NCBI GenBank assembly: GCA_047967505.1
Contig: CM106538.1
Direction: 5' to 3' (one strand)
DNA length: 64,000 bases
DNA from: Dipteris shenzhenensis
Taxonomy: Eukaryota
The notes beneath the pieces are model-generated. The model was not told the DNA's origin. It ran no database searches and saw nothing but the letters and a program-made list of their open reading frames with translations. The number at the start of each line of letters is the position of its first letter. The first letter of the stretch is position 1. Below, piece by piece: positions 1-43,700 of the stretch. The translations under genes were made by a program, and so were the position numbers.

Positions 1-28
1 ACATCTCAATGTCCAAGTTAGAGATTAC

Positions 29-540
29 CATGTACTGTGTGAAATGATTATTTCCCCAACCTATCTCCATATTCCGACTAAAGTCATTCATAGCATTGAT
101 GAAACACTATGCATCATCTTCTTCGAATCTTTCTTTTGTAGTAAAGGTACCAAGCTATCAAGAGCTAACCACACTCGCGCCTTTTCTAGTCTTTTTTGTC
201 CCTTCCCCTCTCGTTCACAACAGGCATTGTGTAACTTTCTCCATACATCAAACTCATTAGCACATTTGAGCTTGTCATTCTTCTTCTTTGCAGAAAGGAA
301 TTTCAAAGCCTTGACACCACCAAAGCTTGGTTACAAGGAACATTGCTTGTTTTTCCAGATCTTTTCTCATCTTTTGTAATCTTTACTTGCCCAAAGTGTA
401 GTCCCATATCTAAAAGAACCTTTTCGATTCTTGCAATCATCCTCTCACTCTCTCGTTGGGGCTTCAAGTTATATTCATCAATGATGTACAAATACACACA
501 ATGAGTACAATTTGTGCACTTCTTGAAATTCCTCTTAAGG
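29..540 (-). pseudogene. C-terminal exon remnant of a RAG1/Transib-like DDE transposase
   Basis: Across frameshifts reads RIEKVLLDMGL...PSFGGVKALKFLS...WLALDSLVPLL...GWGNNHFTQYM, then a GTAATC donor at 28. Order resembles RAG1 LDKHLRKKMNL..MNGNFARKLM..ITNYFH (recalled, not aligned). Confidence 0.55.
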
Positions 541-570
541 GTTTTTATTAAAACATGTATTTTTAAAAAT

Positions 571-593
571 TAGGGTTTTGGGCCCTATATAAA
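571..593 (+). promoter_or_regulatory. Compact promoter: telo-box, site II and TATA box upstream of the H3-like gene
   Basis: TAGGGTTT (571-578, reverse AAACCCTA), TGGGCC (579-584) and TATATAAA (586-593), about 130 bp before the ATG at 726. Confidence 0.55.
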
Positions 594-725
594 ATAATGT
601 GCCCTCATTTTCATTTCATTATTTAAAGAGCTCTCCACTCCCACACCACCTCCCACTTGCCCCTAACATTTCCACCCTATCTCTCACACCCTCACCCTTT
701 CTCTCGCACACTCTCTCCATCCCCC

Positions 726-1463
726 ATGGCCAGGCCCAAGATCAAGGCACCACGGAGACTAGCACAGCCAGAACCACCTCCAGACTTAGAGACAGAGAGT
801 GAGAGCCTCCCCCCCTCTCCCCCCGATGATCCCCATCGAAGGGAGAAACTGCCAATCCAAAAGCCAGACAGGGAGCAAGAGGGACAGAGGAAGGCACAAG
901 AGGAGGGACAGAGGAAGGCACAAGAAGATACTTTGATAGAGATGGATGACTTAGAGAGCATAGAGGACGAGTGTGAGGAAGAGGAACAAAGGATAGAGTA
1001 GAGGAACAAGGCAAGAATAGACAATTAGGGTCCACGCCAACGGGGGAAGGGTGCCCGAGCTCCAAGTGCAGGTCAAAGAGGCCCTCAACATCCAGGAAGA
1101 GGCCCTCCACATCAAGGGCAAAGAGGCCTTCATCTAATGAGGCGGTACAGATTCAAGCCAAGGGTAGTGGCACTTTAGGAGATCATAAAGTTTCAGAAGT
1201 CCATTGTTTTTGCTCATCCCGATGGCCAGCTTCGCAAGGGTGGATGCGAGGTCATGTAGGACCTCAACCTTAGCCCAACGTCTTGATTTTATAGGCGCAG
1301 AGTTGTGGAGGCATCCTGGTGTATTTCTAGAGATGCCTTGCTTGCCCTGCAGCATGTAGGTGAGGCCTACCTAGTAGACCTCATGGATGACACCCAGCTG
1401 GTTGCCATCCATAGGAAAAGTGTTGCGGTGATCGCCATAGACATGCAATTTTGTATGTCCTAG
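726..1463 (+). pseudogene. Divergent histone H3/CENH3-like gene, intronless, with premature stops
   Basis: Starts MARPK. Histone fold: RRYRFKPRVVAL*EIIKFQKS, LLIPMASFARV (local +1 frame), EVM*D, ISRDALLALQHVGEAYLVDLMDDTQLVAIHRKSVAVIAIDMQF. In-frame TAG at 999, 1026, 1176. Confidence 0.9.
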
Positions 1464-2639
1464 GAAGCCCAAGGGCACTTAGGGATTTTATATGCTCCAC
1501 CTTGTACTCTACCTACAGGCATCTACCTTGTACTCTGCTACGGGCATCTACCTTGTACTCTGCCTATAAGCATCAATATAATAAAATGTCTTTTTTAGAA
1601 TTATCTTTGTATGTGCAATCTCAAATTTATTTTCAGTGTATTTCCAATCTATTAATTTACTTACATGCACTCTCAATTTACTTACGAAAGACTTTTTGAT
1701 GACGTATACAACATCAAAATGAAATAATAATTATCAAATCACAATAGAACATGCAAAAGGAAATAATACTCAATTTTACTTAACATAGAAAAGGAAAGAT
1801 CTGTAATGCCAGCTAGCCTGCAATAGCTATAATACTATGTAGCGGACCATATCATGTGTCCGAGAACAAAAACAAAGCTACACTATGCCTAATCAGAACA
1901 ACACAATCGGTAGTAGGACGGATGGGCCTCATCTTCACCATCTGACTGAGGACCCTGAACTTCATGATGTTCATCTTTCCATCTGGCGATAATTGTCTAT
2001 GGAACACCAAAATGTGTTGAGCCACTCTGTTGATGTAGTGGCTGATCGATGCCATCCCCCACCATAAGACTCTCTCGTTCCACCCTTGCATCTAGTATAC
2101 TCATCAACCCATAAGATATCCTGCAACCAACATATTACATAAAAACCCAAAGATTATATAAATTAATAAAATATTATTTTTCAAGAATTACTAAGAATAA
2201 GGGTTTTCATAGACAAAAAATCATATCTTTAAAAAATTTGATTTGGGAGGCCACTGGGACCCTAGCAACCATGCCCATCAATTTTATGCCAAAAAAACCC
2301 ATGCCAGCCCAAAATCTGACATCATGCCTGCAGTAGTAATCATCCATGTAAGCCTGGTGGTGGTAACTGGAAGTTGAGTAATGACAAGCCACTACGGTGT
2401 GGCTGGTAATTAATTACTAGCCCGATGGGTCTTAGCTATTGCCACCACAGATGTGGCTGGGAATCTTAGACGCCGCCACCTCTAATCATTCATTATCATG
2501 CAAGTCAATACTACTGCCTTGAATTATTCAAAATTCGGGCCAACCATCGCAATGGCTCTAACCTTGAGGGTAGTCGGGCTACAACCACTGCGGTGCTCTC
2601 ACCTTGATAGTGTAGTTAGGCTACAAACCGCTATTCCAT

Positions 2640-3110
2640 TCTCTTAATCGTTTCCTCTTCTATCCCTCTTGAATGTTTTGTTCTACCTTGCAATCTCAAG
2701 CCTCCACTATTCCATTTCCTTCACTGCTTCATCTTCTATCCCTCTTGACCATTTCTTTCTCCCTTGCAATCAAACTGCAAACTCAAGCCTCAACTATTCG
2801 ATTTCCTTCACTGTTTCATCTTCTATCCCTCTCAACCATTTCTATCTCCCTTGCACTCTTCTTGGGAGCTCCTCACACAATATTTCCTCCCCCTCTGTAG
2901 CACAATGCAAGAGCCCCTCCTCCCTTGGTCTTGAAATCGTGACATATGGGAACTCTGCTTCATCTTCTATCTCTTTTGACCATTTCTTTCTCCCTTGCAA
3001 TCGGACTGCAAACTCAAGCCTCAATTATTCCATTTCATTCACTGTTTCATCTTCTATCCCTCTCGACTATTTCTATCTCCCTTGCACTCTTCCTACAGCT
3101 TCTATCCCAT
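2640..3110 (-). repeat. Degenerate direct repeats with E/K/R-rich coiled-coil-like coding potential
   Basis: ~2727-2860 recurs at ~2957-3092 (CTTCATCTTCTATC...CCCTTGCACTCTT); minus strand reads like IEDEAVKEME*WRLEIAR. Confidence 0.6.
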
Positions 3111-4354
3111 ATCTCAAAGGTAGCCAACCACCAAATCTCCTGTTCTAATTACACACTGAACTGTCTTGCGTTATCAAGCTCAACTTCAAGGTCCAGTATT
3201 CTATTCATCATTGTCAAACTAACTCTTTCTAATTTTTTACTTTTGACCATCTCACTTTCATCAAGCTTTAGTACAATCTTCAGAGTACCATTCCATTCCT
3301 CCATAGGCATATCATAAAACTTCACCATGGCTTTCAAATCTCTTCGAACATCCTTCACAAAGTTATTGTTGAATGTCAATTCCAATTCTTTAGTCTCTCT
3401 AGCCTTTGTTTTCAAAGTTAGTGTACTACATACATGCTGAGGCTCACCGACTAAATCAAGTATGCCCAAATTGAGTGCATACCTGGCCTTATCAACATCA
3501 GTTGGTTTAGGAAGCGGGGCTTTAACTTTTGCTCCCAGAGAAAGACATGCTATTTTTAAGCTCTTAAATATGAGCCGATATGCCCTTGTACTTATCCCTG
3601 TAGTATTACAAACTCCCTGTGTACTAGTTGCATTGGAATGCTCCACAACTTTATTCATTGACTCGGATGTTATCTCTGATTTTAGACTTTTAAATTTTGG
3701 ATGGTGTATAATAGACTCCAAAATTTTTTTTGTGAACACTTCACCCATAGCACCATAGTGTTCATCATGGATAGACATATACAAGCTCTCACTCGATGCT
3801 TCCAGTGACCACTTTTCCTGGATATTTCATCCATTGGATGCAATTTGCTCTTACGTAGTCTTGGACCCATTGGAGTATCCTTCATTAGTGCTCTCTCCCA
3901 ATTGAGCATCTAATGTTTAAACCTTTACCTATAATTCTAGATTTTTCTTCTCTATGCCATTATATGCAGACATTTGAACACTTGTAGCTTGCATAGATGA
4001 TACCAAATGCTGATTCCAAGCCTCCAACATTGCGATCCTTTTGTCTCTTTCATGAAGCAAAGATTAATATTGGTTGTGAAGGCTACTTGCTCCATGACCA
4101 ATCAACCTTCAACAATATCCTAACAAACCATTCTCACCCTTACATAGGAACTTTATTAAGCTAGTCAATCCATAGAATTGAGGAGTCTGAAAAGTTTGTG
4201 GATCTACTAGATATATTTTCCCTTCTAACCACAAATCCATATGTGCTTTTCCTTGATTTTGAAGAGCTACTAAATCAATTTCCCTTGCTAAGGAGGATTC
4301 ATTCCTTTTTAAAAATGGTGCATTCTCTGCATTTATTTGAAAATGGATATCCAC
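3110..4354 (-). pseudogene. N-terminal and first-catalytic part of the RAG1/Transib-like transposase
   Basis: ORFs 4109-4354, 3682-3909 and 3149-3784: DEISRKSGHWKHRVR, TTGISTRAYRLIFKSLK..PKPTDVDKARYAL, LKIVLKLDES (candidate first Asp), FSV*LEQEIWWLATFE. Confidence 0.55.
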
Positions 4355-5042
4355 CTTTTTTTAATTCCGAGCAGCTTGCATGATTTCATGCACTTTCCAC
4401 CTAATATAATATAACATTGACATCAACAAATAATATAAAAACATGACATGTTTCAAAAAAAGTGTCAAACCAAGCAAAAATGAAAACCCCAATTGCATGC
4501 AAAATCTAACGATTGAAATCTACAAATTCAAAAAAACATAAACTTATCATTAAACACTGTTAAACTATGTGAATCAACAATACCTCACAGGGATCTTTGA
4601 AGAAAAAATGTGATCAAAATTGTCCTCCTCAATGGTCCCTCTTGTAATCCAGGATGTTGAAATTAATGGATTTTTCTCCAATACTAATTATATGCTTCAA
4701 AAAATCTCCAAATCTATTTCAAACCATCTTCTATAAAAAACCTCTATAGCAAGAGTGTATCTTTTAAAACCAAAAAAACTTTCTTCCTCTTTAAATCATG
4801 TATTAAAAGAAAATAAACTACAAATTAACTGCTTCTTCAAAGTTGCATCATAAAATCTCATTATTTTCATTGTCTTGCATTGTTCTAAAGGTTTTCTCAC
4901 CTGAATCTCCATGCAAGTTGCTCTGATAGACCCTGATTTGAGTTGAAAACTAAAAACATTCTAAAACTACATGAATGAACAGTACCTGATTCTTAGAGCA
5001 AGGTCCTTTGAAAGAAAAATGTGATCAAAATTGTCCCTCCCA

Positions 5043-7250
5043 TGTTGGGATATCTCAAGGTGTATGCCTCAGGCACACCTTATGTTTCTATGTGTGAGTG
5101 CTAGAGGCACAGTTAGGTGCCCACAAGCACAGTTAGGTGGTGGAAAAGCCACATAGGATGATTTAGTGAATCTAGGAGCAGATTAAGGAGATGATTGTGG
5201 AGCTTTGAGGTCATCAGTGATGTCAGTGAGCATGTATGAGGTGCCTACTAAGGACCTCACTCTTCTTCATTCTACAACCAAGTAATGCAAGTATTCTGAG
5301 TTTGTGTCCACTCTTTGCTTTCCTTTCAGCTTTCCAACATGGTATCAGAGCCATTTGATCCCCCTTGAGCCCATCTTCTTCTTCTTCTTCTTCTTCACCA
5401 TCTCTCCCTCTTCTCCCAAAAATTTGCTTGAGCTTGTTCTCCTTCAATCCTCAACCATTTCCCACGCCCTTTCTGCTGGAGATCCCTCTTGTTGGGGCGA
5501 ATTTCGGGCTGGAATGAATTAATGAAATATGCGCGCTGCTCGTCGCCATTGCACGAAAATCATCGATCCTTCTTCCTGCAAGTTCTCTGCACCTGCTCTG
5601 TCTTTGTCTAATTCCTTTTAGGGCAAGCTTCTCCATCCTAGAGCTACCTTGTGCTGAAATCTGAGCAGCAATGGCTGCATATTGAAGGAGAAAACAGAGA
5701 AAAACCAGTCGACTTTGTTCAAGAAGGTGAAGGCGACCTGACGCATATTTTCGCCTCTTCTTCCCAGAGGATCTACTATGGTATACCAGCTTTCTTTTGC
5801 CTCAGAAAGCCCCCTTTCTTTTGCTTTGAAGAGTGTGATATGAGCCCTCCAAGTTCAGCTCTCTAGTTTTGACAGTTTTGACATACTTTTGAAAATGATG
5901 CTACATAAAATGCTACTCTAGCATTTCTGATCTTTTGAAGTTTTCAATAACTTCACTACAAGTGTTGCTTCAGTTTTGTTTTGACTTGCTAGACCTAGTT
6001 GTGATTGGAAAGTGTTTATTTCATTCACTTCTATGAAGCATGCAAAAAGTAGCATCATTGTTTGAAAACTAGTCACTACTATTTACTACATCAAGTGCAT
6101 ATACTTTGGAAGTATTTCAGTTCTTTTTGCCTTGTAAGAGAGAAGACACTACCCAATACCTAGGTTAGAGCCTCTCATGGCTTGTTTATGCAAAATATGT
6201 GAAAAGCCAAAACATAAAGCAATGTCTTGTTATGCTACAAAGGATGAAAATGCCAACCTGACTTCCTTGTTGAAGATTGCCAAAACAATGGTTGCCAAAA
6301 AGGAAGCAACTACAGAGATCTACCCTCTCATGGCACTTTTATTTGACTCCAAGTACAAGAAAAAGATGAAGGTCAGATACCTAAGATATGCTTCTCTACA
6401 CAACTATGGAGATGACAAGATAATTGTTCTCTTGAAGGATATGACTTTCAGATCCACTTGTTCTATCATAGTACCATCTTATAAGGCACTAGACACTGCC
6501 CATGTGGTAAGACCTTGCCTTGACATGGATATTTTGCCTCCACAAGATGAGGCATCCCATGAAGATTATGCATTTTAAATCATCTCTATGTATGCTCCAG
6601 ATCTCTCTTTTTATGTCAAGGTACTCAGCCTGGATAGTCCTCCAAAATGAATGAAAATAAACTATTGTGTGTTGTGTGTTTTGTAAACACCTCTGGTCAC
6701 CTTATGATGTAGGCCATGTGTATGTTTGTTCCATGGTACCTCCTACAGACATTGTGTGCATGTACATGTAGGGGAGATAACCATTGGAATGTCTGTTTGT
6801 ATCCCTTTCCGTTTACCTTACACCCAAGGGAACCCTTGCTAGCATGAGAACCTAGCCATAGATTTATCCTTGACCACCATGAGATGGCATGAGAAACTAT
6901 GAGACTAGATGTATCCTTGACATAGCCTGAGGCATTTCCTTGAGGGGGGGTTTGTTGGGATATCTCAAGGTGTATGCCTTAGGCACACCTTATGTTTCTA
7001 TGTGTGAGTGCTAGAGGCACAGTTAGGTGCCCACAAGCACAGTTAGGTGGTGGAAAAGCCACATAGTATGATTGAGTGAATCTAGGAGCAGATTGAGGAG
7101 ATGATTGTGGAGCTTTGAGGTCATCAGTGATGTCAGTGAGCATGTATGAGGTGCCTACTTAAGGACCTCACTCTTCTTCATTCTACAACCAAGTAATGCA
7201 AGTATTCTGAGTTTGTGTCCACTCTTTGCTTTCCTTTCAGCTTTCCAACA
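5043..7250 (+). mobile_element. Complete non-autonomous LTR retrotransposon (2.2 kb)
   Basis: LTRs 5043-5339 and 6953-7250 (TG...CA; 4 substitutions and 1 indel by eye), PBS TGGTATCAGAGC 5340-5351, PPT GAGGGGGGG before 6953, 5-bp TSD TCCCA at 5038-5042 and 7251-7255. Confidence 0.97.
6177..6578 (+). CDS. 133-aa ORF with a CCHC zinc knuckle inside the LTR element (gag-derived?)
   Basis: CKICEKPKHKAMSC fits C-x2-C-x4-H-x4-C; open from ATG to TAA. Confidence 0.55.
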   Translation: MACLCKICEKPKHKAMSCYATKDENANLTSLLKIAKTMVAKKEATTEIYPLMALLFDSKYKKKMKVRYLRYASLHNYGDDKIIVLLKDMTFRSTCSIIVPSYKALDTAHVVRPCLDMDILPPQDEASHEDYAF

Positions 7251-8486
7251 TCCCAGTGGTCCCAAATGTGTCCCAGGATTGATGAAGTTGATGGTTCTTG
7301 CTTACAAATTATATGCTCCCAAACATCTCGAAATCTATTTCAAGCAATATTTTGTAGAAAACCATTGATAGTAAGAGTGAAAAAGACTCATTTCTCATGG
7401 AATTTCTTACAAAACAAACAAATTTTTCAATGTTTTCAAACCATGAAATAAAACAAAACAACACAACTACACAAAATAAACTACAAACTAACTATCCCTT
7501 CAAAGTTACATCATTAACAAACAAATCTCGTCATAATTACTGTGTTGTTTTGTTCCAAAGATTATCTCACCTGAACCTCCATAGAAGCTGTCTGGATGGA
7601 CCCCAAACCCTCACAAATGGTTCAAAATCATGCACCCTTGAGATGGCAGCAGGGAAAGTAACTAGTATTGAGAGATTGGCAAAAGAAAATTTGGTTCTCA
7701 TGCATCAGCAACTGCAATGCCTGAAAGTCAATCTTATTTGATCCTTTCTCAAAGAATCTCATCCAATAGCTCCTTCTAAGCTCCAAACACCTTACATCAT
7801 TCATGGCTCGCTTAGAACATTGATTGCCTTGTCTTCTTATATGAAATGATTTCATATCGTGGGAGAATCTCATATGAGATAGGAAGTGCCGCGATTTGAA
7901 GGAGAAGCACCCAAAATAGAGAAAGAAGAAGGTAGGTTGAATCTCATTCAAAAACCTTGAACGTTTTGAAAGAATGAGAGTGAAATGGGAGGGAAATGTA
8001 GGTAGAGAAGAGAAGTGACGAGATTTTGGCATGAGAGTCCATCCCATGAGAGGGAGAATAGAGAAAGAAGCCTCCTGCTCAAGAGCCAATAGGAAATTGG
8101 AAAAGAGGATTGGAGCAAAGAAAAATTCGAAATGGTGCTCAAAAATGAGGGGGAAGCAAGAGGAATGAGAGAGAATGAAAGGGTGTCGTAGTTGGATGGG
8201 AGGATTTGGTTTCACGTCAAAGTTTGGTTGAGAAACTAGGTTTCTCAGTTTGGTTACAATTTAAAAATGTGAGGGGAGAGTTGAGGCTCAGTTGAGGTAG
8301 CAAGTGGGAGCTCCACCTCATTGTTTGGGCCATTGAATAAAGAAATAGAGAAGTCATGCCACTTCCAATATTCTATTGCCCTCCATCAGCCAATATTGTA
8401 TTGTGCTTTATTCACCTTATTCTTCCATGTCATCAGCCCAAGGGCTTCCTTACAGGGCCCTTTTTGAGTCCAAATTTTTTGTAATG

Positions 8487-19349: not shown

Positions 19350-22300
19350 CTACTCATCCGAATCCAAATCGTCCTCATCTTGTTGGCCTGTTCCTTAGTC
19401 CTCGTCAGCTGCGTCTTCTCCCGCATCCTCGTCACGTGCGTTTGATCCCTGGCCCTATTGATTGCTCGCCTCTGATGATGGGACACTTGAGCTTTGACCC
19501 TCAGAGTGAACCATATAAATCAAAAATTAGATTGGAACTTAAAGAATAAAACAATTTAAAAAGTGAGATTACAAGTAGGAGTAAACTTATATCGTGCGAG
19601 CAGCCACCTCAGCCCAATCGACTGTCGCTCCCATTGCCTCTTGCTCAATAAACCACAGCTTTGTTCCTATCCGAAATGCATGTCGCGTCTTTGCATTTGT
19701 AGGAAGATGACCCATCACAGCTTGCTATGGATCCAATTTACGAGAGTTAGAGTTAGCTAAAGTGCATGTAATATGTAGTAAAACAAATAGAACAATACAT
19801 TAAATGAGAAGAAGTAGACTTACCACGGTTGCCTCGAACGCCAACCGTCTGCCTGCACCAAAGTGTGAAGTACCTACGACATCCAGCCGTCTCTTTGCAG
19901 CCCTCCTCTGACCCTCAAACAATTCGAGATGGTCCCTATTTTGCTTCTTGAAGAACTTCCAATCAGCTTTGTCTGCCCAGCTGGGTTTAGCCAACCCCTT
20001 TGTGATGGAAGTATGCAAGGTTGATCTACGATCCTTCAAGACCAAACCCATGTGCTCTCGCATATAATCCTCGTTAAACTCCCACTTTGGTGGGTTAGGG
20101 TATTTTTGTTTTAACTCATCGATGACCGCCTGCTTCTTTTGGCCATCTTGATACCGCCAATCGGTAGTAATGCTGCTCTTAAAGTGATGGCTCATCAACC
20201 TCCTCATGGTGGCAATCACTGCTTTGCCCTTTCTATCTTCTATTATCTCTCCGGCAGCTGTGATTTGATAGGAGAGATCCCCTCATGAGTAAGGAAGACT
20301 GACAGTAGCAGAGTTAGAAGGAGTGGAAGCTGCGCGAGCGCTTCCGGAGTGAGGAGTAGCAGTGGGAGTAGGAGAGGGAAAGGGACCTGACTGATACTGT
20401 GTCTCCGGACCAAGTGGAAACCTGTAGGAACGTGAGTGTGTTGACTCGTCTACATCTCCCGAGTCAGCACAACATAAGCTACCCTTCCTACTCTTCCTTC
20501 CCTTACGAGAGGCATGCACAGGTGATGACCCCTTGGTCAAAGGGGCACGAGGGGATGGCTGGGCAGTACGTCCACCCATCGATGTAGGGAAGGGAATTGC
20601 TGAGGTCCTCTGAGATAGTAGAGAGAAGCATCTCGCTGCCTCCTCATCACTCATCTATGCTACAAATTCATCGAGACTCCCGATAAAGCCATGCACGGCT
20701 AGCAAAGGAGTTTCCTGAGGGGTAGTCGTAGTGCTACATGGAAGAGGAGTTAGACCAGGGGTAGTCGTAGTGCTAGGTCCGAGAGGAGTCAGACCAGGGG
20801 TAGTCCTCAGGGTAGTCACTTGAGAAGAATCAAAGTCCTCTGGAGCATAAAGATCATGAGCTCTTCTCCTGCGAGGCTGTCCGTACTCATCGGATGAGCG
20901 ACGTGATCCCATGTCTAACATAGACACAAACACAAAAACAAAAAACAAAAAAACAAACATAAGCATAGGCATAGGCATAGGCATAGCCAACGAGGGAAAG
21001 AAGAGGAAGAAGAGGAAGTGAAAGAGGAAGAAGAGGAAGAGGAATCTGAAGAGGGAGAGAAGAGGGAAAAGAGAAGGGGGAGGAGAAGAGGAAGAAGAGG
21101 GAAAGGAAAGAGGGAAAGAAGAGGAGAGAAGAGGGAAAGGAAGAGGAAGAAGAGAAAGAAGAGGGAGAGAAGAGGAAGAAGAGAGAAAGAAGAGAGAAAG
21201 AAGAGGGGAAGGAGAGGGAAAGGAGAGGGGAAGAGAGCAAAAGAGAGAAGAGCATAAGAGAAGAGGAATCTCTTATGCTCATGCATAAGCATAAGCATTC
21301 TTATGTTTATGCATGAGCATAAGAGAAGGGGGAAAGAGAGAAGAGGAAGAGAAGAAGAGGAAGAGAGAAGGGGGAAATAGAGAAGAGCATAAGAGAAGAG
21401 GAATCTCTTATGCTCATGCATAAGCATAAGCATTCTTATGCTCATGCTTATGTTTATGCATGAGCATAAGAGAAGGGGGAAAGAGAGAAGAAGAGGAAGA
21501 GAAGAAGAGGAAGAGAAGAGGAATCTGAAGAAGAGGGAAGAGAAGAGGGAAATGAGAGAAGAGCATAAGAGAAGAGGAATCTCTTATGCTCATGCATAAG
21601 CATAAGCATTCTTATGCTCATGCTTATGTTTATGCATGAGCATAAAAGAAGGGGGAAAGAGAGAAGAGGAAGAGAATAAGAAAAAGAGAGCATAAGAGCA
21701 GAGGGAAATGAGAGAAGAGCATAAGAGGAAGAGAAGGGGGAAAAAAGAGCATAAGAGAAGAGCATAAGAGAAGAGGGAAATGAGAGAAGAGCATAAGAGA
21801 AGGGGGAAATAGAGAATAAGAGGGAAAGGAAAGAGGGAAAGGAAAGAGAGAAGGGGGAAAGAGAGAATAAGAGAAGGGGGAAAAAAGAGAGCATATGTCT
21901 ACAAGTTCGCTTATGCTCATGCATAAGCATAAGCATGAGCATATGTCTCATTTTCTTATGCTCATGCTTATGCTTAAGCATAAGCATAAGCATAAGCTCA
22001 TGCTTATGCTTATGCATGAGCATAAGAGAAGGGGGAAATAGAGAATAAGAGCGAAAGGAAAGGGGAAAGGAAAGCGAGAAGGGGGAAAGAGAGAATAAGA
22101 GAAGGGAGGAAAAAGAGACATATGCTCATGCTTATGCATGAGCATATGTCTACTTCTCTTATGCTCATGCACAAGCATAAGCATGAGCATATGTCTCATT
22201 TTCTTATGCTCATGCTTATGCTTAAGCATAAGCATAAGCATAAGCATAAGCTCATGCTTATGCTTATGCATGAACATAAGAGAAGGGGGAAATAGAGAAT

Positions 22301-22990
22301 AAGAGGGAAAGGAAAGGGGAAAGGAAAGCGAGAAGGGGGAAAGAGAGAATAAGAGAAGGGAGGAAAAAGAGACATATGCTCATGCTTATGCATGAGCATA
22401 TGTCTACTTCTCTTATGCTCATGCACAAGCATAAGCATGAGCAAATGTCTCATTTTCTTATGCTGATGCTTATGCTTAAGCATAAGCATAAGCATAAGCT
22501 CATGCTTATGCTTATGCATGAGCATAAGAGAAGGGGGAAATAGAGAACAAGAGGGAAAGGAAAGGGGAAAGGAAAGCGAGAAGGGGGAAAGAGAGAATAA
22601 GAGAAGGGGGAAAAAAGAGACATATGCTTATGCATGAACATAAGAGAAGGAGGAAATAGAGAATAAGAGGGAAAGGAAAGAGGGAAAGGAAAGAGGGGGA
22701 AAGGAAAGAGAGAAGGGGGAAAGAGAGAATAAGAGAAGGGGGAAAAAGAAGACATAAGGAAAGAGGGAAAAAGAGGAAAAGAAAGAGAGAAGAAGAGGAA
22801 AAGGAAAGAGAGAAAAAGAGGAGGAAATAGATTGAAGGAGGGAAGAAAGAAAGAGTTTGAGGGGAAGAGAGGGTTCCTACACCCATCAGTGCAGCTAGCG
22901 CTTAAGGCGCTAGCTGCAAGCCGATGCAAATAACAAAAATAATAAATGGAAAAAGAGGAAGCACTTACCTGAAATAGTACGTCCCGCTTG
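19350..22990 (-). pseudogene. TnpA/Ptta-like accessory gene of family 1, spliced and disrupted
   Basis: ATG at 20912 after a 5' intron; Ser/Pro-rich N-terminus; KYPNPPKWEF...KPSWADKADWKFFKK...SHFGAG; GTAAGT donor near 19823; acidic C-terminal tail; stops at 20655 and 20283. Confidence 0.7.
20915..22968 (-). repeat. 2-kb intron filled with (GCATAA)n and GA-rich repeats, ~248-bp higher-order unit
   Basis: Minus-strand CAG|GTAAG donor at 22968 and TTAG|AC acceptor at 20915; near-identical ORFs at 21948 and 22196 are offset by 248 bp. Confidence 0.8.
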
Positions 22991-24470
22991 GTGTTGTGGA
23001 CTGGCCCTACAAAAGAGAGGAAACAACCAATTTTTTCAAATAAGATGTTAGAGGAAGGAGGAGATTACAAAAGTAACTTCTTGAAAGGAGGAGATTAAGG
23101 AGACAAGGAAAGGAGGAGATTGAGGAGACAAGGAGAAAGAGAAGGAAGAGAAATACAAAAAAAAGAGGTGAGTCTTCTTTCTTTCTTGAAATCTCGTTTT
23201 TTGTTTCAATCCTTTGAAAACAAGCATGAAAACTAGTTTACAGGTTTAGCAATACAAGGAGAAGCACTCACAAAACTAAAGCTAACAGACAAACAACCTA
23301 CATTGTTGAAACAAACTCACCTCTTGAAGAACTTCCTTTCAAGAAACCAAAGAGGGAAAAGGGTAGAGAGGGAGTACAAGAGCTAGGAGAAGGGTGAGGA
23401 GTGGAGAATAGAGTGGGAGGTTGTCGGAAATAGGTGGGAGATCGTCAAAAATAGGTGGGAGGAGAGATTGGCTTGCTTACTTAAGAGATTAGAGAAGAGG
23501 ATAAAGAAAGCACCACGCGACAAGAGTCTCGGGTTTTAACCCACAGCGTCGCTATATAGCGACACTTATCCGTCGCCATATAGCGACGTTTTTAATTAAA
23601 AACGTCACTATATAGCGATGGAATAGAGCAAAAAGTCGCTATATAGCGACACTTACAGTCACTTTTTTGTTGTAGCATGAAAAAAAGCTCATAGATGCTA
23701 TTTTATAACTGTTAATATCTCTTCTTCATACTTATGTTGTGATTTTATAAGTGTAGATGGAAGGGACGAGTGGAAGCTCGTCCGATGATGCGCCCAACGC
23801 CCGAGAGCACGAAGTGGCTTACGGAGAGGTTATACTATCATTGCACTCATTGCAAGCGAGAAGTACTATCATGCGCCACTTGCGGATGTATGGGGAGGAG
23901 CCGGAACCAGTACCCACTGTTGGTGTTGCACGTGTTGATGGACCATCGGTAAGTCAAAGCTATTTAAGTTCGTAGTCTTATTGTATAATAGGAAATACAA
24001 GATCTTATATTTACACGAAATCTTAAAACAGGATGAGGAGGCTGACGAGGGTACGCATATACCTTCTCACTTTCAGCAAGACTATAGTCTCCCGGATGAT
24101 GACGAGGGTATGGTCGACATGATGGATTCCATTTTTAGGGGCACTACATCCCATGTACATGTGATGTCAGAGTCTGAGGTCAAAATGCAAGAGTTGCAAT
24201 CAACACAATTGTATGAGGGTGCTACGATGTCTAAACTACATGCTTGTCTCTCAATCTTGAATCTACAAGTAAAGTATGGGTGGTCGGATACAAGTGTCTC
24301 GGCCTTAATGAGGTTAGCTCTTGCATTAATTTGACTCATTATTTGGATATTGTTTGTTTTGAGAATCATCATTTGGATAGTGTATACCGAATCATCATTG
24401 TTCGAAGCCTATGTATGTTTTAAATTGTAACAGGTTGCTCCAGAAGATGTTGCCTGCACCAAATACCATG

Positions 24471-25133
24471 CCCACATCAAGAGATGAAGTGAAAAAGATG
24501 CTAACAATGGTGGGTATGGATTATGATACCATCCATGCTTGCTGTAATGATTGTATTCTCTTTCGTCGTGAGCATGGAGATTTGGCTAGTTGTCCAAAGT
24601 GTGGGGAACAACGATATAGAGATGACTCGCTGAGCGGATATTAGTAAAGGTCTTGAGACACTTTCCCATCATTGCAAGAATACAACACATGTTCCGATGC
24701 AAATCCATAGCAGAGTTGATGACATCGCATGCATTTCATCGGTCCACTGATGACACATTGAGGATTCCCGTAGATTATGCAGCTTGGAAGCACATAGATA
24801 GCCCACATCAAGAGATGAAGCAAAAAAGATGCTAACAACGGTGGGTATGGATTATGATACCATCCATGCTTGCCGTAATGATTGTATTCTCTTTCGTCGT
24901 GAGCGTGGAGATTTGGCTAGTTGTCCAAAGTGTGGGGAACAACGATATAGAGATGACTTGCAGGGTGAGCGGATACCAGTAAAGGTCTTGAGACACTTTC
25001 CCATCATTGCAAGAATACAACACATGCTTCGATGCAAATCCATAGCGGAGTTGATGACATGGCTTGCATCTCATCGGTCCACTGATGACACATTGAGGAT
25101 TCCTGCAGATTGTGCAGCTTGGAAGCACATAGA
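24471..25133 (+). repeat. 331-bp tandem duplication within a TNP2 exon
   Basis: CCCACATCAAGAGATGAAG begins at 24471 and 24802; both units end ...GGAAGCACATAGATA. Confidence 0.95.
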
Positions 25134-26957
25134 TAATCAGTGGCCGGACTTTGTGAGGGAGCCACGCAACTTACATCTTGGGCTAGACATGGACGGCGTG
25201 AATCCTTTTGGGTTACGCTCGACATCTTGGTCGACATGGCCCATAGTCATGGTGAATTACAATATCCCACCATGGCTAACAATAAAAAAGGGACACCTCA
25301 TGCTTGCACTACTTGTGCTAGGAAAGTACAAGACAAAAAACATGGACGTGTACATGGCACCTTTGATAGAGGAGTTACAGATATTATGGAGAGGAGTGCA
25401 GACCTTTGATATTTCCAGAGCTCCTAGACATACCAATGATATTTTGGTTAACGGTATCTTGATGTGGACCATGCATGACTACCCAGGATATGGAGAGTGT
25501 GCAGGTATGTGGTTGTGTCTTTACATGTACAATGAGAGATTATGCTTTTTTGACTCTCTTTTGCACGCATGTCTTGTACTAACACATTCATGCACGCGTG
25601 CAAGACTTGTTACAAGTGGGTACCATGCTTGTCCTGTTTGTGAACCGGCTCTGAAATTGCTTGCACGACGCTACTCCAAACATATGAGGAAAAATGTTTA
25701 TGAAGGTCATGCTCGATACCTTCCGCTCGACCATCTCGCATGTGAAGGTCAGCTTGATCCACCACCATCATATTTGAAGGCAAGTGACTGGATTCAAGCT
25801 TGGAGGGTGAATGGAGAGGAACCTCCTCCTAGTATGAAGAGGCTATCGATCTTTCACGAGATTCCTTATTGGGGTCAGTTACAAATCAATCATCTCTTGG
25901 ATCCCATGCATATCTTCAAGAATGTGGGGGCTACTATTTGGGCACACTTGGTTGGTTCCAAGGACTCGAGAGGAGTGCAACAAGACTTGCGTGTTATGAA
26001 TAGGATGTCTCATTTGTGGCCCCAAGTGCATGCTTCGGGAAAAGTTATCCTCTCGAAAGCAACGTGGATCCTCTCTACGAGGGAGAAGGCAGTGGTCAAG
26101 GCAGACATTGCCTCTTTTCAAACACCGACAGGGTACATGCATTGCTTGAAAGGAGAATTTTCAAAGGACAATAAGCTTAGTGGGCTCAAGTCCCATGATT
26201 GGCACAAGGTCTTATAGGTATTCTAAGTAGAATTAGTGTACTGATAATCGTGATGCGTTAGCGTAATTATCATTATGTTATATTGTTGACATGACTTCAT
26301 TGTTGCTTTGATAGTTCATCCTCCCAATTACAATAAAAGGGTGCTTACAAGAAGATGTTAGAAATGCTATATTCAAGATCTGTGGTATTGTGAGGTATGC
26401 TTACTATCAAATCGCATTGAATGTATTTTCTTCAATTTAAGCTAATTAATTTGTAGACTAATTATGAAAATATCTTACATGGACATGTGAAATAGGTGGA
26501 TATCTCAAAAAGAGATCTCCATATCAAGCATCGAGAAGGCTAGGGTGGAATCCATCGAAGCCGTATGCTTGCTTGAGAAGCACTTTCCCTCGAGCATTAT
26601 GATAACTCAAGTCCACTTACTTGTGCACATAGTTGATGAGGTGGCTATAGCAGGTACCGTTCATAGTCGATGGATGTTTTTTCTCGAGGGTTTATGAAAA
26701 CTTTAAAGGGATTTGTAAGACAAAGAGCAAGACCGGAAGCAAGCATGGCAGAGGGATGGCTTGTGCAAGAGTCATTAGTATATATCACAGAGTTTCTTGC
26801 ATCCACCGATCCTGATATGCCGCAAGCTTGGAATAACAAGGATGATGATCGCATGGTTGGTGAGGTTCCCCAAGGAAAAGGGATTGAAAGAAAGATGAGC
26901 GAAGAGCAAATGGAGAAATTCAATAAGTTTTGTATCCTCAATAGCCCTGAGATGCAG

Positions 26958-38569: not shown

Positions 38570-40330
38570 ATCTATGTTCTCCATGTCCTCGCTCCCTTCC
38601 ATGCTCCCTTCTGCGCTCCCTTCTGCGCTCCCTTCTCTGCCTCCTTCCTCGTCTTCTTCCTTGTCTTCTTGTGCAGGGACCTGTAAACAAGGGACAACAT
38701 ATATCAATGTATGAAAAATTAAATCCTTACTTATAATATTGACATTATTTAATTACTTTCAAATACCTCGAGGGCCGCTCCAGTAGCCTGGATATACTGC
38801 TCCTCAGTAATGAACCCATCATGATAGAAGTGCTTCCATGTATCTCCTCTGCGATGGTATCAGTGGTAGGCTATCTCAACAGGAGTAGGGTATCTGCGCA
38901 CGATCTCAAGCTGCAAGACGACACAATTTGCAAAGGGGTTAGTACAAAGAAACAACCTCCTAATAAACTACATAAGCAATATAATTTGAGATCGATACTT
39001 ACAAATTGGGCCTCCCATGATTTAACACCCCCTGTTGCAAAATGCACGCTTTCATATTGCTCCATCTGGATCTTTCGTGCCTCCACGTGCTGCAGACTGG
39101 GGTCCTCCCTCGCTGACTTCATTGCTTTCTTCCACTCATGCTTGTGAGCGGTGTGGGGCGGGCCTCTTGGCGGTTGACCTCCCTCGAGCCTGGCAAGCTT
39201 CGCTAGTGCTTGCCTCTTAAGCGAAGATCTTTTATTGCCAAGTATCGTAACAATCTTTGACTTGGCCCATTTATCTGTGAACTGATGATTGGGGGGGTTA
39301 GGATACCTAGAGTGAATAGCAGTGAGGGTCTCATCAGCCAACCTCTTTGGATGGTCTTTGTAGTGGATAAAGCAATCTCTGTAATTAGTAGCAATTACAG
39401 AGTGCATGAAGGCCATGATGTCCTTTCCTCGTGCATCAACCAACCTCGTAGTTGGAGACTGCACGGGACTACGTGGACCACTCATAGCTGGAGAACCGAG
39501 TCTCGACTGCACAGGAGTACACCGACGGCTCTATGAGACAGAAGGACCTCCTAACGGCATGGGGAAGGGGTATAAGATAGCATGGGGGAAGGGGCATAAG
39601 ACAACATGGGGGAAGGGGCATAAGACGGCATGGGAGAAGGGCCTCTACTGTGTAGCCGACTGGGCTGTGCTGACTCTGCTGGGGTAATCTCAGCTGGTGT
39701 GGGGTGGTTTGGAGTCTATAGTGCTGACTCCTGGGGGGTGTTTAGAGTACCCATCATATACCCATATAACTCCACAGAACTAGGAGGGTGCCCTAAAAGG
39801 TTATATAAGTCTCTAAAAATAGACTCCCGGAGATCAGGTGAGCCCAAAGAGCTTCCTGGCCACATGATGAACTGGAAAAAAGAAAAAAAGACGATCACTG
39901 ATGAGCTGAGAAGAAAGGGGAATGGAAGAAAAGATTACTATCGGAAAAGATTACTGTCGAAGTGCATCTGTAGATGCGTCTGAGAAGCACGTCTCTTTTT
40001 GCGTATAATAGCGCATCTATAGATGCGGCTGTCTATGTCTGTAAACAGGCTAGACACACCTGTAGATGCGGTTTTAGATGCGCTCTCAAACACGTCTATA
40101 AACGCGCTCCGATAGATGGACTTCTAAAAGTAGAAAAGGACATGCGGTCGACGCAAAAACGTAACACTGATACCAAAATCATTCGTTTCTTGGATACGAC
40201 AAAGGACAAATCCAAAGAGAGCAACTTCCAAAAAAGATCAACTGTAAAGAGACTTACCTTGGATAGAGGTATGGAAGCTTCTTCTCCTTCTTCAAAGTTG
40301 CTTCTCTTCCTTGTTCACCCTCTTCTCTTG
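38570..40330 (-). pseudogene. TnpA/Ptta-like accessory gene of family 2
   Basis: SRYPNPPNHQFTDKW...HKHEWKKAMK...VHFATGG parallels the family-1 minus-strand gene; GT-AG introns; acidic tail. Confidence 0.7.
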
Positions 40331-40729: not shown

Positions 40730-43700
40730 TTCAACAAGTAGCTCCACTGAGGATGAATCCCTCTGTATCCACCATTGCGAAATGTGGTTGGAGCAAAAAA
40801 TCCAATGTATGTGTGATCAATGTCGAGGAAACATGTATCGTGCACGTAGGATTACACTCAATCACATCTCAAAGTATGGAGAATGGGATGCGACCGTAAA
40901 CATGATAAGTGTTAAAGAGTTAAGGTTGATTGAGATACCTATGGGTGTTCATATGTTTGAGTTATGATTCCGTTTTAATTTGATACAGGATGTAGTGCCA
41001 CACCCGCATATGTTGCCCTATGTTCCATGCATGCGTCAATGATTGCGTTTTGTTTCGTGGACTACATAAGGATGCAAGAGAGTGCCCTACTTGTGGAGAG
41101 GCAAGATATAGAGTAGATCTCAAAACTTTGGACGTGCCTCGTAAGGTTCTGCGACATTTTCCCATAATCCCTCACATCCAACATATGTTCAAGTGCAAAT
41201 CCATTGCAGAGCTCATGTCATGGCATTCCTCCCATCGATCAACCGATGGCAAGCGAAGAACTCCCACAGACTCTCCTGCGTGGAAGCATATTGAAGACAC
41301 ATGGCCAAGCTTCAAGGAAGAACCTAGGAGCTTGAGACTTGGATTGGGTATGGATGGTGTGAACCCATTTGGTCTCAAAAGCACCTCTTACAGTGTATGG
41401 CCAGTGATATTGGTGAATTACAATCTTCCACCCTCTATGGCTATTAAGAAAGGACATGTTATGCTGTCCCTTCTAATTCTAGGGAAACATAAAGTCAAAA
41501 ATACTGATGTTTATTTGGAGCCTTTGATTGACGAGCTAGAGATACTTTGGAGAGGTATCGAGGTGCATGATGTGAGTAGGCCTCCCTCATCACGAGACTT
41601 CAACTGCAAAGCAGTCTTGATGTGGATGATGCATGACTTCCCAGGCTATGGCAAGTGTTCAAGTAAGCATTGCACTTCTAATTATGAATAGGCAAAGGAT
41701 GTGGCACCCTAAACCCACCTTCAACTCTAAATTGCATCTATTGTTTAGATCTCACTACATCAGGTTACCATGTATGTCCTGTTTGTGGTCCTTCGCTAGT
41801 TGCCTCGTGGGCAGACGCATTGAATAAGGTCATCTATGAGAATTACCATCGATTTTTCCCACCTGATCATCCTAGATATGTTGCCCCTTGGAATGAAGTC
41901 CTCCCACAATCACTCACTGTGGGAGATTGGATGAGAATTTGGGACAGTGGAAGGGTTTGTAACTATTGTGTGCTATATTGGCTGGAAATAAAGATTACCT
42001 GCTAACACCAGCTTTTGTTTAGATACTCCATCTTTTATCGTTCACCATATTGGTCCCACCTCAAGATCAATTATCTGCTTGATCCCATGTATATCTTCAA
42101 GAATGTGGCATCTACCATTTGGGAGCATTTGAATGGGACACAAGATTCCATAGGCATGAGGGAGGATCTACGTATCACAGGGAGGATGCGTGAAGCTTGG
42201 CCACAAGAGAGACCAAATGGGCATGTTTTTTTACCTCGTGCACCGTGGAGGTTATCAAAGCTAGAGATGGCAGCGGTGAAGCGTGCTATTACTACGATTC
42301 ATACTCCCACTGGATGTATGAGGTGTTTGAAGGGAGCCTTTACAAAGAGCAAGAAAAGAGGTGTAGAGTAATTATATGGCTTGAAATCTCATGATTGGCA
42401 CAAGATGCTCCAAGTAAGTATTTTATGTGCATAATATCTTTTTCCTTTCAAAATTTTGAGTGAACAATTATAAGCAACTAATCAACCACCTCCTCGTGGG
42501 TTCAATTCATACTACCTACTAGCATTTCTCGTAGTGCATCAAAGGATGTGAAGGATTGTATTTACAAGATGGGCGAGCTTGTGAGGTACTTTACATGATA
42601 CAAAATATGATGCGTATCAATGCTCCATGCAAGGTGTTCATATTGCTAATATGGTGTACTTTTTCATTTCTAGGTATGTGAGCTCAAAGGAAATAGATCC
42701 CACCACGCTTGAGAATGCTCGAGTTATGTCAGTGGAGGTGGTTTGTTTAGTGGAGGAGACATTTCCACGTTCTATTCTCACAAGCCAACTACATCTTATA
42801 GTGCATTTGGTGGATGACATAGCTATATGCAGTACTATACATGCACGATGGTTGTTCTTCCTTGAGCACTACATGAAGACCTTGAAGGGCTTCGTGAGAC
42901 AAAATGCAAGACCCGAAGGTAGCATGGTCAAGGGTTAGTTGGTACAAGAGTCACTTGTATATATTTTTGAGTTTCTTATTGATGTGGATAGCTCTCTCCC
43001 ACGACTATGGAGAGATGATAAAGAGCTAAGGATGACCTCTATTGTGCCTCAAGGAAAAGGACGCAACAACTTTAATAGACACAAGGTTGCATAATCGTAT
43101 CAACCTCTATTGTGTGCTTAATAGTGATGTGATGAAAAGATGGGTGACAAGATACGAGGATGCAAAGGCAAGAAGACAAGAAGAAAGGGCCCTCTTTCGT
43201 ACACACCACGGATCTCGTGTGCCATACCCTCAGTATCTAAGAGCACTTCCAAAGGATATTCATATGGATTGGCTACTTGATGAAATGGAGAAAGCAGAGA
43301 AAGACGAGGGGATGCATATCACAATGGAAGAATGGGAGTATGCTAGGGGATGCATGCGGTATATAGAATGTTATGCATAAGTTAGGACCTTTTAGTAATT
43401 TAGATTGCTTATTTAATTGATTTTTTCTTGGTGTAGTGCACTATGTTCAATGCTATATGGTGTGAGGGCAAGCATTTTTGAACACAACGGATTGATGATA
43501 AGGGAAACACACAAGACTGTGGCATCATTGCTAGCTTTGAGGGAGCCAATGGAGCCATGGATGATTAATGTAGCATAATCCAAGATATTATTAAGCTTGA
43601 CTTTCGAAGCTTCTTTGCATATGTTTTGGATGTAAAGTGGTTTAAGGATGTGGACGTGGAAAGAGGCCCTAATGCAACAATCAAATGCCATGCAAGTGGC

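Follow-up and report, generated by a model that had tools for sequence, protein, structure and literature searches.

A probable relic of a RAG1-like transposase gene in Dipteris shenzhenensis and the unnamed protein family to which it belongs

RAG1 and the Transib transposases are enzymes of the kind behind antibody-gene rearrangement, and the origin of RAG1 has been traced to Transib-type transposons, which are known from animals and a few fungi. The Chapaev transposases have been described from animals, carry an N-terminal Chapa zinc finger, and leave a 3-bp target-site duplication (TSD). We analyzed a stretch of 64,000 nucleotides from Dipteris shenzhenensis (contig CM106538.1; the whole stretch is called the window below), the minus strand of which holds a gene remnant at positions 26-4375. 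This remnant, which is dead, probably derives from a gene that encoded a DDE (Asp-Asp-Glu) cut-and-paste transposase with a RAG1-type core, a member of a large unnamed protein family. An earlier note on the same DNA had described it as a RAG1/Transib-like transposase remnant from a lineage that is little characterised in plants.

Passages of Kapitonov and Jurka (2005) list as the hallmarks of Transib a 5-bp TSD, a 38-bp terminal inverted repeat (TIR) composed of a CACAATG heptamer, a spacer, and a nonamer, and a DDE triad shared with RAG1; the same passages describe plant genomes as apparently free of recognizable Transibs. An extract from a 2021 preprint counts just 35 Transib transposases recovered across eukaryotes. 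Extracts from a 2025 survey of 1007 plant genomes state that 17 superfamilies, including Transib, were screened through Pfam models and that active clusters were found in seven superfamilies, Transib not being one of them. With regard to Chapaev, excerpts of Majorek et al. (2014) identify DUF1280 as the Chapaev transposases and group them with RAG1, apart from Transposase_21/Mirage, and a passage of Kapitonov and Koonin (2015) treats Chapaev as a clade within the Transib superfamily. Our own literature searches, with Repbase and non-open journals outside their reach, found no account of a Transib or RAG1-like lineage in plants; where a match paired Transib with plant terms, it was a repeat-masker table or a review. 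The statement that the lineage is little characterised in plants agrees with these searches and with the 2005 passages.

The remnant was recognized through its relatives. A 225-residue open reading frame (ORF) at 3149-3826 matched one relative, P0001 (754 aa, E = 2.3e-31), in a collection of 5.8 billion proteins. When P0001 and seven further relatives were compared with the window using tblastn, two collinear blocks were obtained, 4375..3110 and 569..26. The first block (3110..4375, minus strand) comprises the N-terminal two thirds of the RAG1-like pseudogene and aligned with residues ~18-461 of P0002 (E = 5e-72, 36% identity over 451 columns). It contains a conserved N-terminal domain with the motif DLWLEGKIY (4211-4237, minus strand) followed by a coiled-coil region, a basic GxWKxRxRA patch, a DDBD-like segment, and the RNase H strand with the putative first catalytic Asp, KLDESE (3251-3268, minus strand). 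The second block (26..569, minus strand) is the C-terminal part of the pseudogene, which corresponds to P0001 residues ~574-753 and is divided over three frames (tblastn segments 569..333, 330..37, and 136..26). A hidden Markov model (HMM) of the family gave the same picture, with matches at 3826..3152 (E = 7e-47), 569..306 (2e-15), 330..91 (1e-13), and 106..2 (2e-4).

The six motifs on which the earlier note had relied were re-mapped, and all of them lie on the minus strand, collinear, where that note had placed them. They are KHRVR (3787-3801, in a shifted frame and within the basic patch), TTGISTRAYRLIFKSLK (3554-3604, the DDBD-like segment), LKIVLKLD (3260-3283), IEKVLLDMGL (399-428), FGGVKALKFL (295-324), and FTQYM (29-43), the last being directly followed by GTAATC, a canonical splice donor. 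The shifted-frame piece with KHRVR matched P0004 residues 132-171 (BLASTP, 45% identity over 40 residues, E = 5e-9) and is, on this alignment, homologous to the family despite its frame. The C-terminal end ..GWGNNHFTQYM matched P0004 residues 728-756 (BLASTP). We give practically no credence to the idea that the motifs resemble RAG1 by chance and mark no gene remnant: no tool result favors it except that the seven window ORFs compared with Pfam gave nothing above the cut-offs, and it is refuted by the tblastn value of 5e-72, the collinear segments, and the HMM value of 7e-47. The remnant is one decayed gene copy of a family of 750-900 aa proteins.

The decay of this copy was extensive. The first block alone (4375..3110) contained eight in-frame stops, the last 570 bases of the copy were spread over three frames, and several frameshifts were present overall. 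Positions 12-223 and 354-513 of the family HMM were found in the window, and positions 224-353, which hold the second Asp, the CxxC motif, and the HxCxxH motif, had no HMM or tblastn match there. A candidate for these positions elsewhere in the window reached at best E = 0.5 (threshold up to 50) and was rejected. Since nothing was found for positions 224-353, the segment with the second catalytic Asp, CxxC, and HxCxxH is lost. A 2.5-kb block (570..3109) that interrupts the coding similarity stands in its place. With at least eight stops, several frameshifts, the loss of the segment with the second Asp and CxxC, and the 2.5-kb interruption, the copy could not work, and we regard it as a dead pseudogene, a functionless relic.

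A scan of metagenome contigs yielded 27 related loci (given as L numbers), and the gene structure was compared with that of several of them. The coding similarity in the window ends exactly after ..TFE (3113). At this point a phase-0 GT-AG intron interrupts the gene in three related loci (L016, L019, and L013), whereas the window reads ATATGG; in L004, the intron after FE/FK is absent. At the other end of the copy, the residue that follows YM was V in 38 of 46 family proteins, as expected for an unspliced GT read through, and H in 5 of the 46, which represent spliced or intron-less forms. These counts, together with FTQYM and the adjoining GTAATC, indicate that the window ends within a conserved intron, of which it includes 28 bases. 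The last exon, with the H-x4-H motif and the proposed catalytic Glu, therefore lies beyond the window start. Unlike most of the family, L016, L001, and L003 have no intron after YM.

We examined the family in its intact members. An exhaustive HMMER scan with P0001 yielded 521 cluster representatives (E ≤ 1e-3), many of them fragments; 231 reached E ≤ 1e-10 and 35 reached E ≤ 1e-30. Long intact ORFs and spliced forms occur (P0003, P0004, P0069, and P0134). The intact members consist of 750-900 aa, in which an N-terminal conserved domain and a coiled coil precede the core, and the core is a complete RAG1-type core made of DDBD-like, pre-RNase H, RNase H, ZnC2-like, ZnH2-like, and C-terminal modules. 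Of 31 relatives, just one was named to species, being a gene-model fragment of the fern Adiantum nelumboides, and two others were labeled only "hypothetical protein". No family member reached any Pfam cut-off, and the family is without a Pfam or database name. The 31 members gave only noise of the coiled-coil type against Pfam at E ≤ 0.1, namely 23 families with one member each.

The conserved motifs are, in P0004 numbering, ..VIKLD404ESE.. with the first Asp, ..WHLAGD501LKTLKC.. with the second Asp, ..PC521xxC524.., ..RVH580xC582TLH585.., and, after the intron, ..YMH755ILxxH760GPW..GSLxIWxxQGME779KSH... Conservation was determined by motif-anchored counts over 178 family proteins. The first Asp was kept in 70/74 and the second in 54/69, the remainder having N, Y, S, G, E, or H at the latter position. 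The CxxC cysteines were kept in 52/66 and 53/59. The spacings in P0004 are D-97-D, D-20-C-x2-C, and H-x4-H-19-E, which are close to those of D600, D708, C727, C730, H937, H942, and E962 in RAG1. A second Cys/His cluster was observed at P0004 positions 507, 580, 582, and 585 (GDLKTLKC and RVHxCTLH), in which H, C, and H were each present in 52 of 52-55 motif matches. The cluster may be an extra zinc site; we know of no counterpart in RAG1.

A direct alignment to RAG1 was obtained with members that include the last exon. In phmmer searches with P0134 and P0069 against all PDB sequences, 15 of 15 matches were RAG1 in each case (E = 0.0024-0.019). The segment GEGHVTHYMHILYAHGPWLIKEHGSLGVWQCQGMEKSH aligned without gaps to RAG1 residues 928-965 (full-length chain 9jpu_A), so that the family H, H, and E fall on RAG1 937, 942, and 962, and the family Glu motif GSLGxWxxQGMEKS aligns to that of RAG1. 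The PDB titles "RAG1(E962Q)" mark E962 as the catalytic Glu. The same alignment pairs FTQYM with RAG1 ITNYFH, a parallel that the earlier note had proposed. The RAG1 profile of Pfam, PF12940, matched P0134 and P0069 at E = 0.003-0.004 (2/5 members with the last exon); among the 31 members scanned, 0/31 had a RAG1 Pfam match at E ≤ 0.1. In RAG1, H937 and H942 are zinc ligands, and D600, D708, C727, and C730 are the putative counterparts of the family Asp and CxxC residues. Putative zinc ligands of the Transib type are present, with the His pair on H937/H942 and the CxxC 20 residues past the second Asp, a feature that CACTA shares (CxxC and H-x3-H before the Glu). The family has a DDE triad in RAG1 order and with RAG1-like spacing, in which the Glu is placed by sequence alignment and the two Asps by motif, model strand, and conservation.

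The structure of an intact relative was predicted for P0004 using AlphaFold2 (AF2) with a 150-sequence alignment (mean pLDDT 77.3, pTM 0.68). Most core blocks between residues 360 and 770 were above pLDDT 90. In the model, D404 lies in strand 396-409, D501 follows strand 490-500, E779 stands at the start of helix 778-793, and the N-terminus forms a small domain and a long helix. All 48 of the 48 Foldseek matches in PDB at E ≤ 1e-3 were RAG1, amphioxus RAGL (BbRAGL), or HzTransib, the best value being 1.4e-11 and that for Transib 5.9e-7; the next matches were the P element (4.8e-3) and Hermes (7.7e-3). VIA-align superposed the model on RAG1 (4wwx_B) with Z = 18.9 (456 aligned residues, root mean square deviation (rmsd) 4.5), on BbRAGL with Z = 17.3, and on HzTransib (6pqx_A) with Z = 16.9 (406 aligned, rmsd 4.0). 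The scores of the P element, ISCth4, and Hermes were lower (9.5, 8.4, and 7.3, respectively). The alignment to RAG1 extended from the DDBD through the C-terminal domain and paired model residues 219-837 with RAG1 residues 460-1008. The parallels of the earlier note other than FTQYM are consistent, at the level of this range, with the structural alignment. The model has the whole-core fold that characterizes the Transib superfamily, a fold that was also obtained in the CACTA control described below. The structural matches of P0004 to RAG1, RAGL, and HzTransib and the sequence alignment to RAG1 only support the designation of the window copy as a RAG1/Transib-like transposase remnant.

The described enzymes differ from the family in several respects. 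RAG1 and BbRAGL share with it the whole core fold and have H937/H942/E962 at the family H/H/E, whereas the identity is 13-15%, the family has its own N-terminal domain and coiled coil in place of a RING or Chapa zinc-finger N-terminus, and its likely host is a plant. HzTransib shares the core fold over chain residues 21-478 and, as a DDE enzyme, likewise has the RNase H fold and a zinc module; however, its Foldseek value (5.9e-7) was weaker than that of RAG1, no sequence match to it was found, and the family proteins are longer, with N-terminal additions and introns. Chapaev (DUF1280) was the nearest neighbor in a language-model comparison of P0001, in which DUF1280 clusters scored 0.93 (178/256 features shared) and RAG1 clusters 0.83-0.86. 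In contrast, DUF1280 had no Pfam match in the family (0/34 distinct members scanned). No Cys-rich Chapa or PHD N-terminus was seen by eye.

As a control for the fold comparison, a compact plant CACTA transposase, P0312, was modeled with a 60-sequence alignment (pLDDT 86.6). The VIA scores of this model, together with several other results, weigh against the assignment of the window copy to a RAG1-type transposase. P0312 was superposed on RAG1 with Z = 16.6 (468 aligned, rmsd 4.8), on BbRAGL with 14.8, on HzTransib with 14.3, and on the P element with 11.7. AF2 was trained on PDB entries, which include RAG1, and residues 775-780 of the P0004 model, around the proposed Glu, had pLDDT <50. The similarity in sequence to RAG1 is weak and short, spanning 38-70 residues within a single motif block; with 15.8 and 16.1 bits, the PF12940 matches fall short of the curated cut-off of 25 bits. 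The profiles A1 and A3 matched no RAG1 chain in PDB and gave chance matches only, and P0001, which is without the last exon, also matched no RAG1 chain there. The second Asp is missing from about a fifth of the family proteins. Finally, the nine loci with flanks, of which six were covered by a repeat search and all nine by a custom 16-mer scan, showed no convincing TIRs or TSDs around the gene. The scan returned 0-8 candidates per locus at 13/16 matches, which is approximately the chance expectation. The upstream flanks of these loci are 210-740 bases long, so the TIRs may sit outside the scanned sequence. One pair in L004 (170/4608, CACT[G/A]CAACAGG) begins with CAC; it has 12 matching bases and no TSD and was rejected.

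The control shares the RAG1-type fold, and the fold alone is therefore no proof of membership in Transib. The family was closer than CACTA to RAG1/Transib by only 2-3 Z units and by ~30-1000-fold in the Foldseek E-value (1.2e-8 and 1.8e-5 for P0312). On these models, the CACTA-Transib assemblage as a whole shares the RAG1-type core fold. The question then arises whether the family is a divergent branch of CMC (CACTA/EnSpm, Mirage, Chapaev), its likeness to RAG1 being ancestral to that assemblage. The near-equal scores on RAG1 (Z 16.6 vs 18.9), the top language-model neighbor DUF1280, a Chapaev transposase, and the abundance of CACTA elements in the same window speak for such a branch, and so does the CACTA alignment itself, which also has CxxC and H-x(3-4)-H before the Glu (FFDIMVHLTVHL..GP..WMYPFER). 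CACTA/EnSpm (Transposase_21 plus DUF4218) is also the commonest relative in the plant host. Nevertheless, no Pfam Transposase_21, DUF4218, or DUF1280 match was obtained in the family (0/34 distinct members scanned for Transposase_21 and DUF4218), and when A3 and A2 were compared by hhalign with A4, a CACTA alignment of 60 sequences, the probabilities were 0.2% and 0.15%, respectively. Moreover, the Glu motif of CACTA is WMYPFER and that of the family is QGMEKS; the latter aligns to RAG1, whereas the P0312 sequence had 0 matches in PDB at E ≤ 10. We consider a CMC origin in this sense unlikely. An affinity to Chapaev is compatible with a RAG1-type transposase, because a passage of Kapitonov and Koonin (2015) puts Chapaev inside the Transib superfamily. 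By these comparisons it is sequence, not fold, that separates the family from CACTA; the family appears nearer to RAG1/Transib/Chapaev than to plant CACTA, and we regard it as a separate lineage whose membership in the superfamily is unproven.

The CACTA/EnSpm ORFs of the window lie at 24802-26217 (+) and 40996-41691 (+) and matched Pfam Transposase_21 at E = 2e-49 and 2e-47, respectively. A CACTA query taken from the window returned dozens of named relatives, all from land plants. Along with the family member from Adiantum nelumboides, these relatives point, indirectly, to a plant genome as the likely setting. Two further ORFs, 19800-20282 (-) and 38871-39530 (-), share the motif "..YPNPP..", had no Pfam match, and each precede a CACTA transposase ORF by ~1.5-5 kb; they may encode CACTA accessory proteins.

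Two kinds of companion gene accompany the RAG1-like gene. The first is a divergent histone H3-like gene that has a Pro-rich tail and a long insertion in loop 1. Intact copies stand directly downstream of the RAG1-like gene and on the same strand at L001:2375-2704 (+) and L003:1675-2226 (+) (Pfam Histone, E = 6e-26 and 7e-34, respectively). In the window, an H3-like pseudogene is present on the plus strand inside the 2.5-kb block (1032..1451, with an N-terminal tail ORF from ~740 and the fold region to 1463). It matched Pfam Histone at 1287-1463 (E = 3.9e-7) and the L003 protein by tblastn (E = 1.6e-15, 37% identity). In view of the intact H3-like genes downstream of the RAG1-like gene in L001 and L003, this pseudogene was probably carried by the element family as cargo rather than inserted at random; that it lies internally and on the opposite strand implies a rearrangement. 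A comparable case is Pyrenophora, for which excerpts of a 2019 study (Mob DNA, PMC6710886) report the amplification of a histone H3-like gene borne by hAT. A DNA transposon with an H3-like gene is common to both cases, whereas the fungal carrier is hAT and the gene considered here accompanies a RAG1-like gene in two loci and the window.

The second companion is ORF2 (up to 627 aa, with an intron in some copies), which is placed tail-to-tail downstream of the RAG1-like gene in L004, L012, L013, L016, L019, and L025 and, more weakly, in L018. Comparison of the related loci placed it on the minus strand at L019:3467-5347, L016:3290-5120, L004:3261-4884, and L013:3105-4572. A weak fragment resembling the C-terminal domain of ORF2 was found in the window at 1855..2091 on the minus strand (tblastn E = 7e-5, 27% identity; HMM E = 0.0011). 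ORF2 had no usable match in Pfam, the atlas, or PDB, and a RAG2 or Kelch signal was absent in Pfam; one Pfam match at E = 0.046 and a PDB match to ferritin at E = 0.075 were discarded as chance. No related locus had both an unsplit ORF2 and a RAG1-like protein that was complete. The arrangement recalls ProtoRAG, where the second gene, RAG2L, is likewise tail-to-tail (convergent RAG1L-RAG2L layout, PMC7204232); there is no sign that ORF2 resembles RAG2.

These companions bear on whether the family moves. A family of domesticated, immobile host genes derived from such a transposase, with an ordinary pseudogene in the window, would account for the undetected TIRs in the nine loci with flanks, for the conserved intron positions (YM, 38/46; FE/FK in L016, L019, and L013), and for the intact long ORFs and spliced forms (P0003, P0004, P0069, and P0134) with conserved neighboring genes. 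It accounts poorly for hundreds of divergent clusters, decayed copies, and ten divergent loci that share the contig-name prefix JAEIGA01. The companions also differ between clades, being H3-like in some and ORF2 in others, which is usual for transposon cargo, and the short upstream flanks (210-740 bases) may leave the TIRs outside. Domestication is retained as a rival, and we judge it quite improbable. A mobile element is favored because divergent copies are many, decayed copies exist, and the companion genes are not the same in every clade.

Homology, decay, the fold match, and the alignment of H, H, and E to RAG1 are results of the analysis, whereas chemistry, mobility, and placement in a superfamily are inferred. 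If it acts as RAG1 and Transib do, an intact enzyme of the family would bind the element ends as a dimer, and Asp404, Asp501, and Glu779 (P0004 numbering) would nick the DNA together with Mg2+. A hairpin would then be formed on the flanking DNA, and the excised element would be integrated. Cys521, Cys524, His755, and His760 would hold a structural zinc.

The interest of the locus is in the family that it reveals, since the window copy itself is inactive. As a tentative proposal, to which we give somewhat less than even chances, plants, probably ferns and other non-seed plants, harbor an undescribed lineage of the RAG1/Transib/Chapaev type at the superfamily level that bridges CACTA and Transib/RAG, in which some members are intact and expressed and the companions are a divergent H3 variant in one clade and, in another, the product of a tail-to-tail ORF arranged as RAG2L is in ProtoRAG. 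If this is true, such a plant lineage would extend RAG1-type recombinases beyond animals and fungi. A family in plants whose sequence aligns to the catalytic Glu and zinc-binding His residues of RAG1 yet is missed by Pfam would broaden the range over which enzymes of this type are known, and the missing Pfam recognition would explain why annotation pipelines overlook such elements. The family would also serve as an outgroup when the divergence of the cores of RAG1, Transib, Chapaev, and CACTA is reconstructed. Given that H3-like genes and ORF2 recur as companions, one may ask how such elements handle chromatin or recruit a partner subunit.

Other features of the window are as follows. Within the 2.5-kb block, tandem or dispersed repeats of ~140-230 bp (2628..3092) abut the coding break, and their self-BLAST pairs were 77-93% identical. 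A small long terminal repeat (LTR) element is located at 5043-7251. Its LTRs measure 299 bp and are 98% identical, its ends read TG..CA, and the 5-bp sequence TCCCA is perfectly duplicated at the target site; the ORF inside the element (6138-6578) contains a zinc-knuckle-like CxxC..H..C pattern and had no Pfam match. A low-complexity repeat block at 20600-23100 has a GC skew of +0.34 and an AT skew of +0.3 and gives rise to long spurious ORFs on the minus strand.

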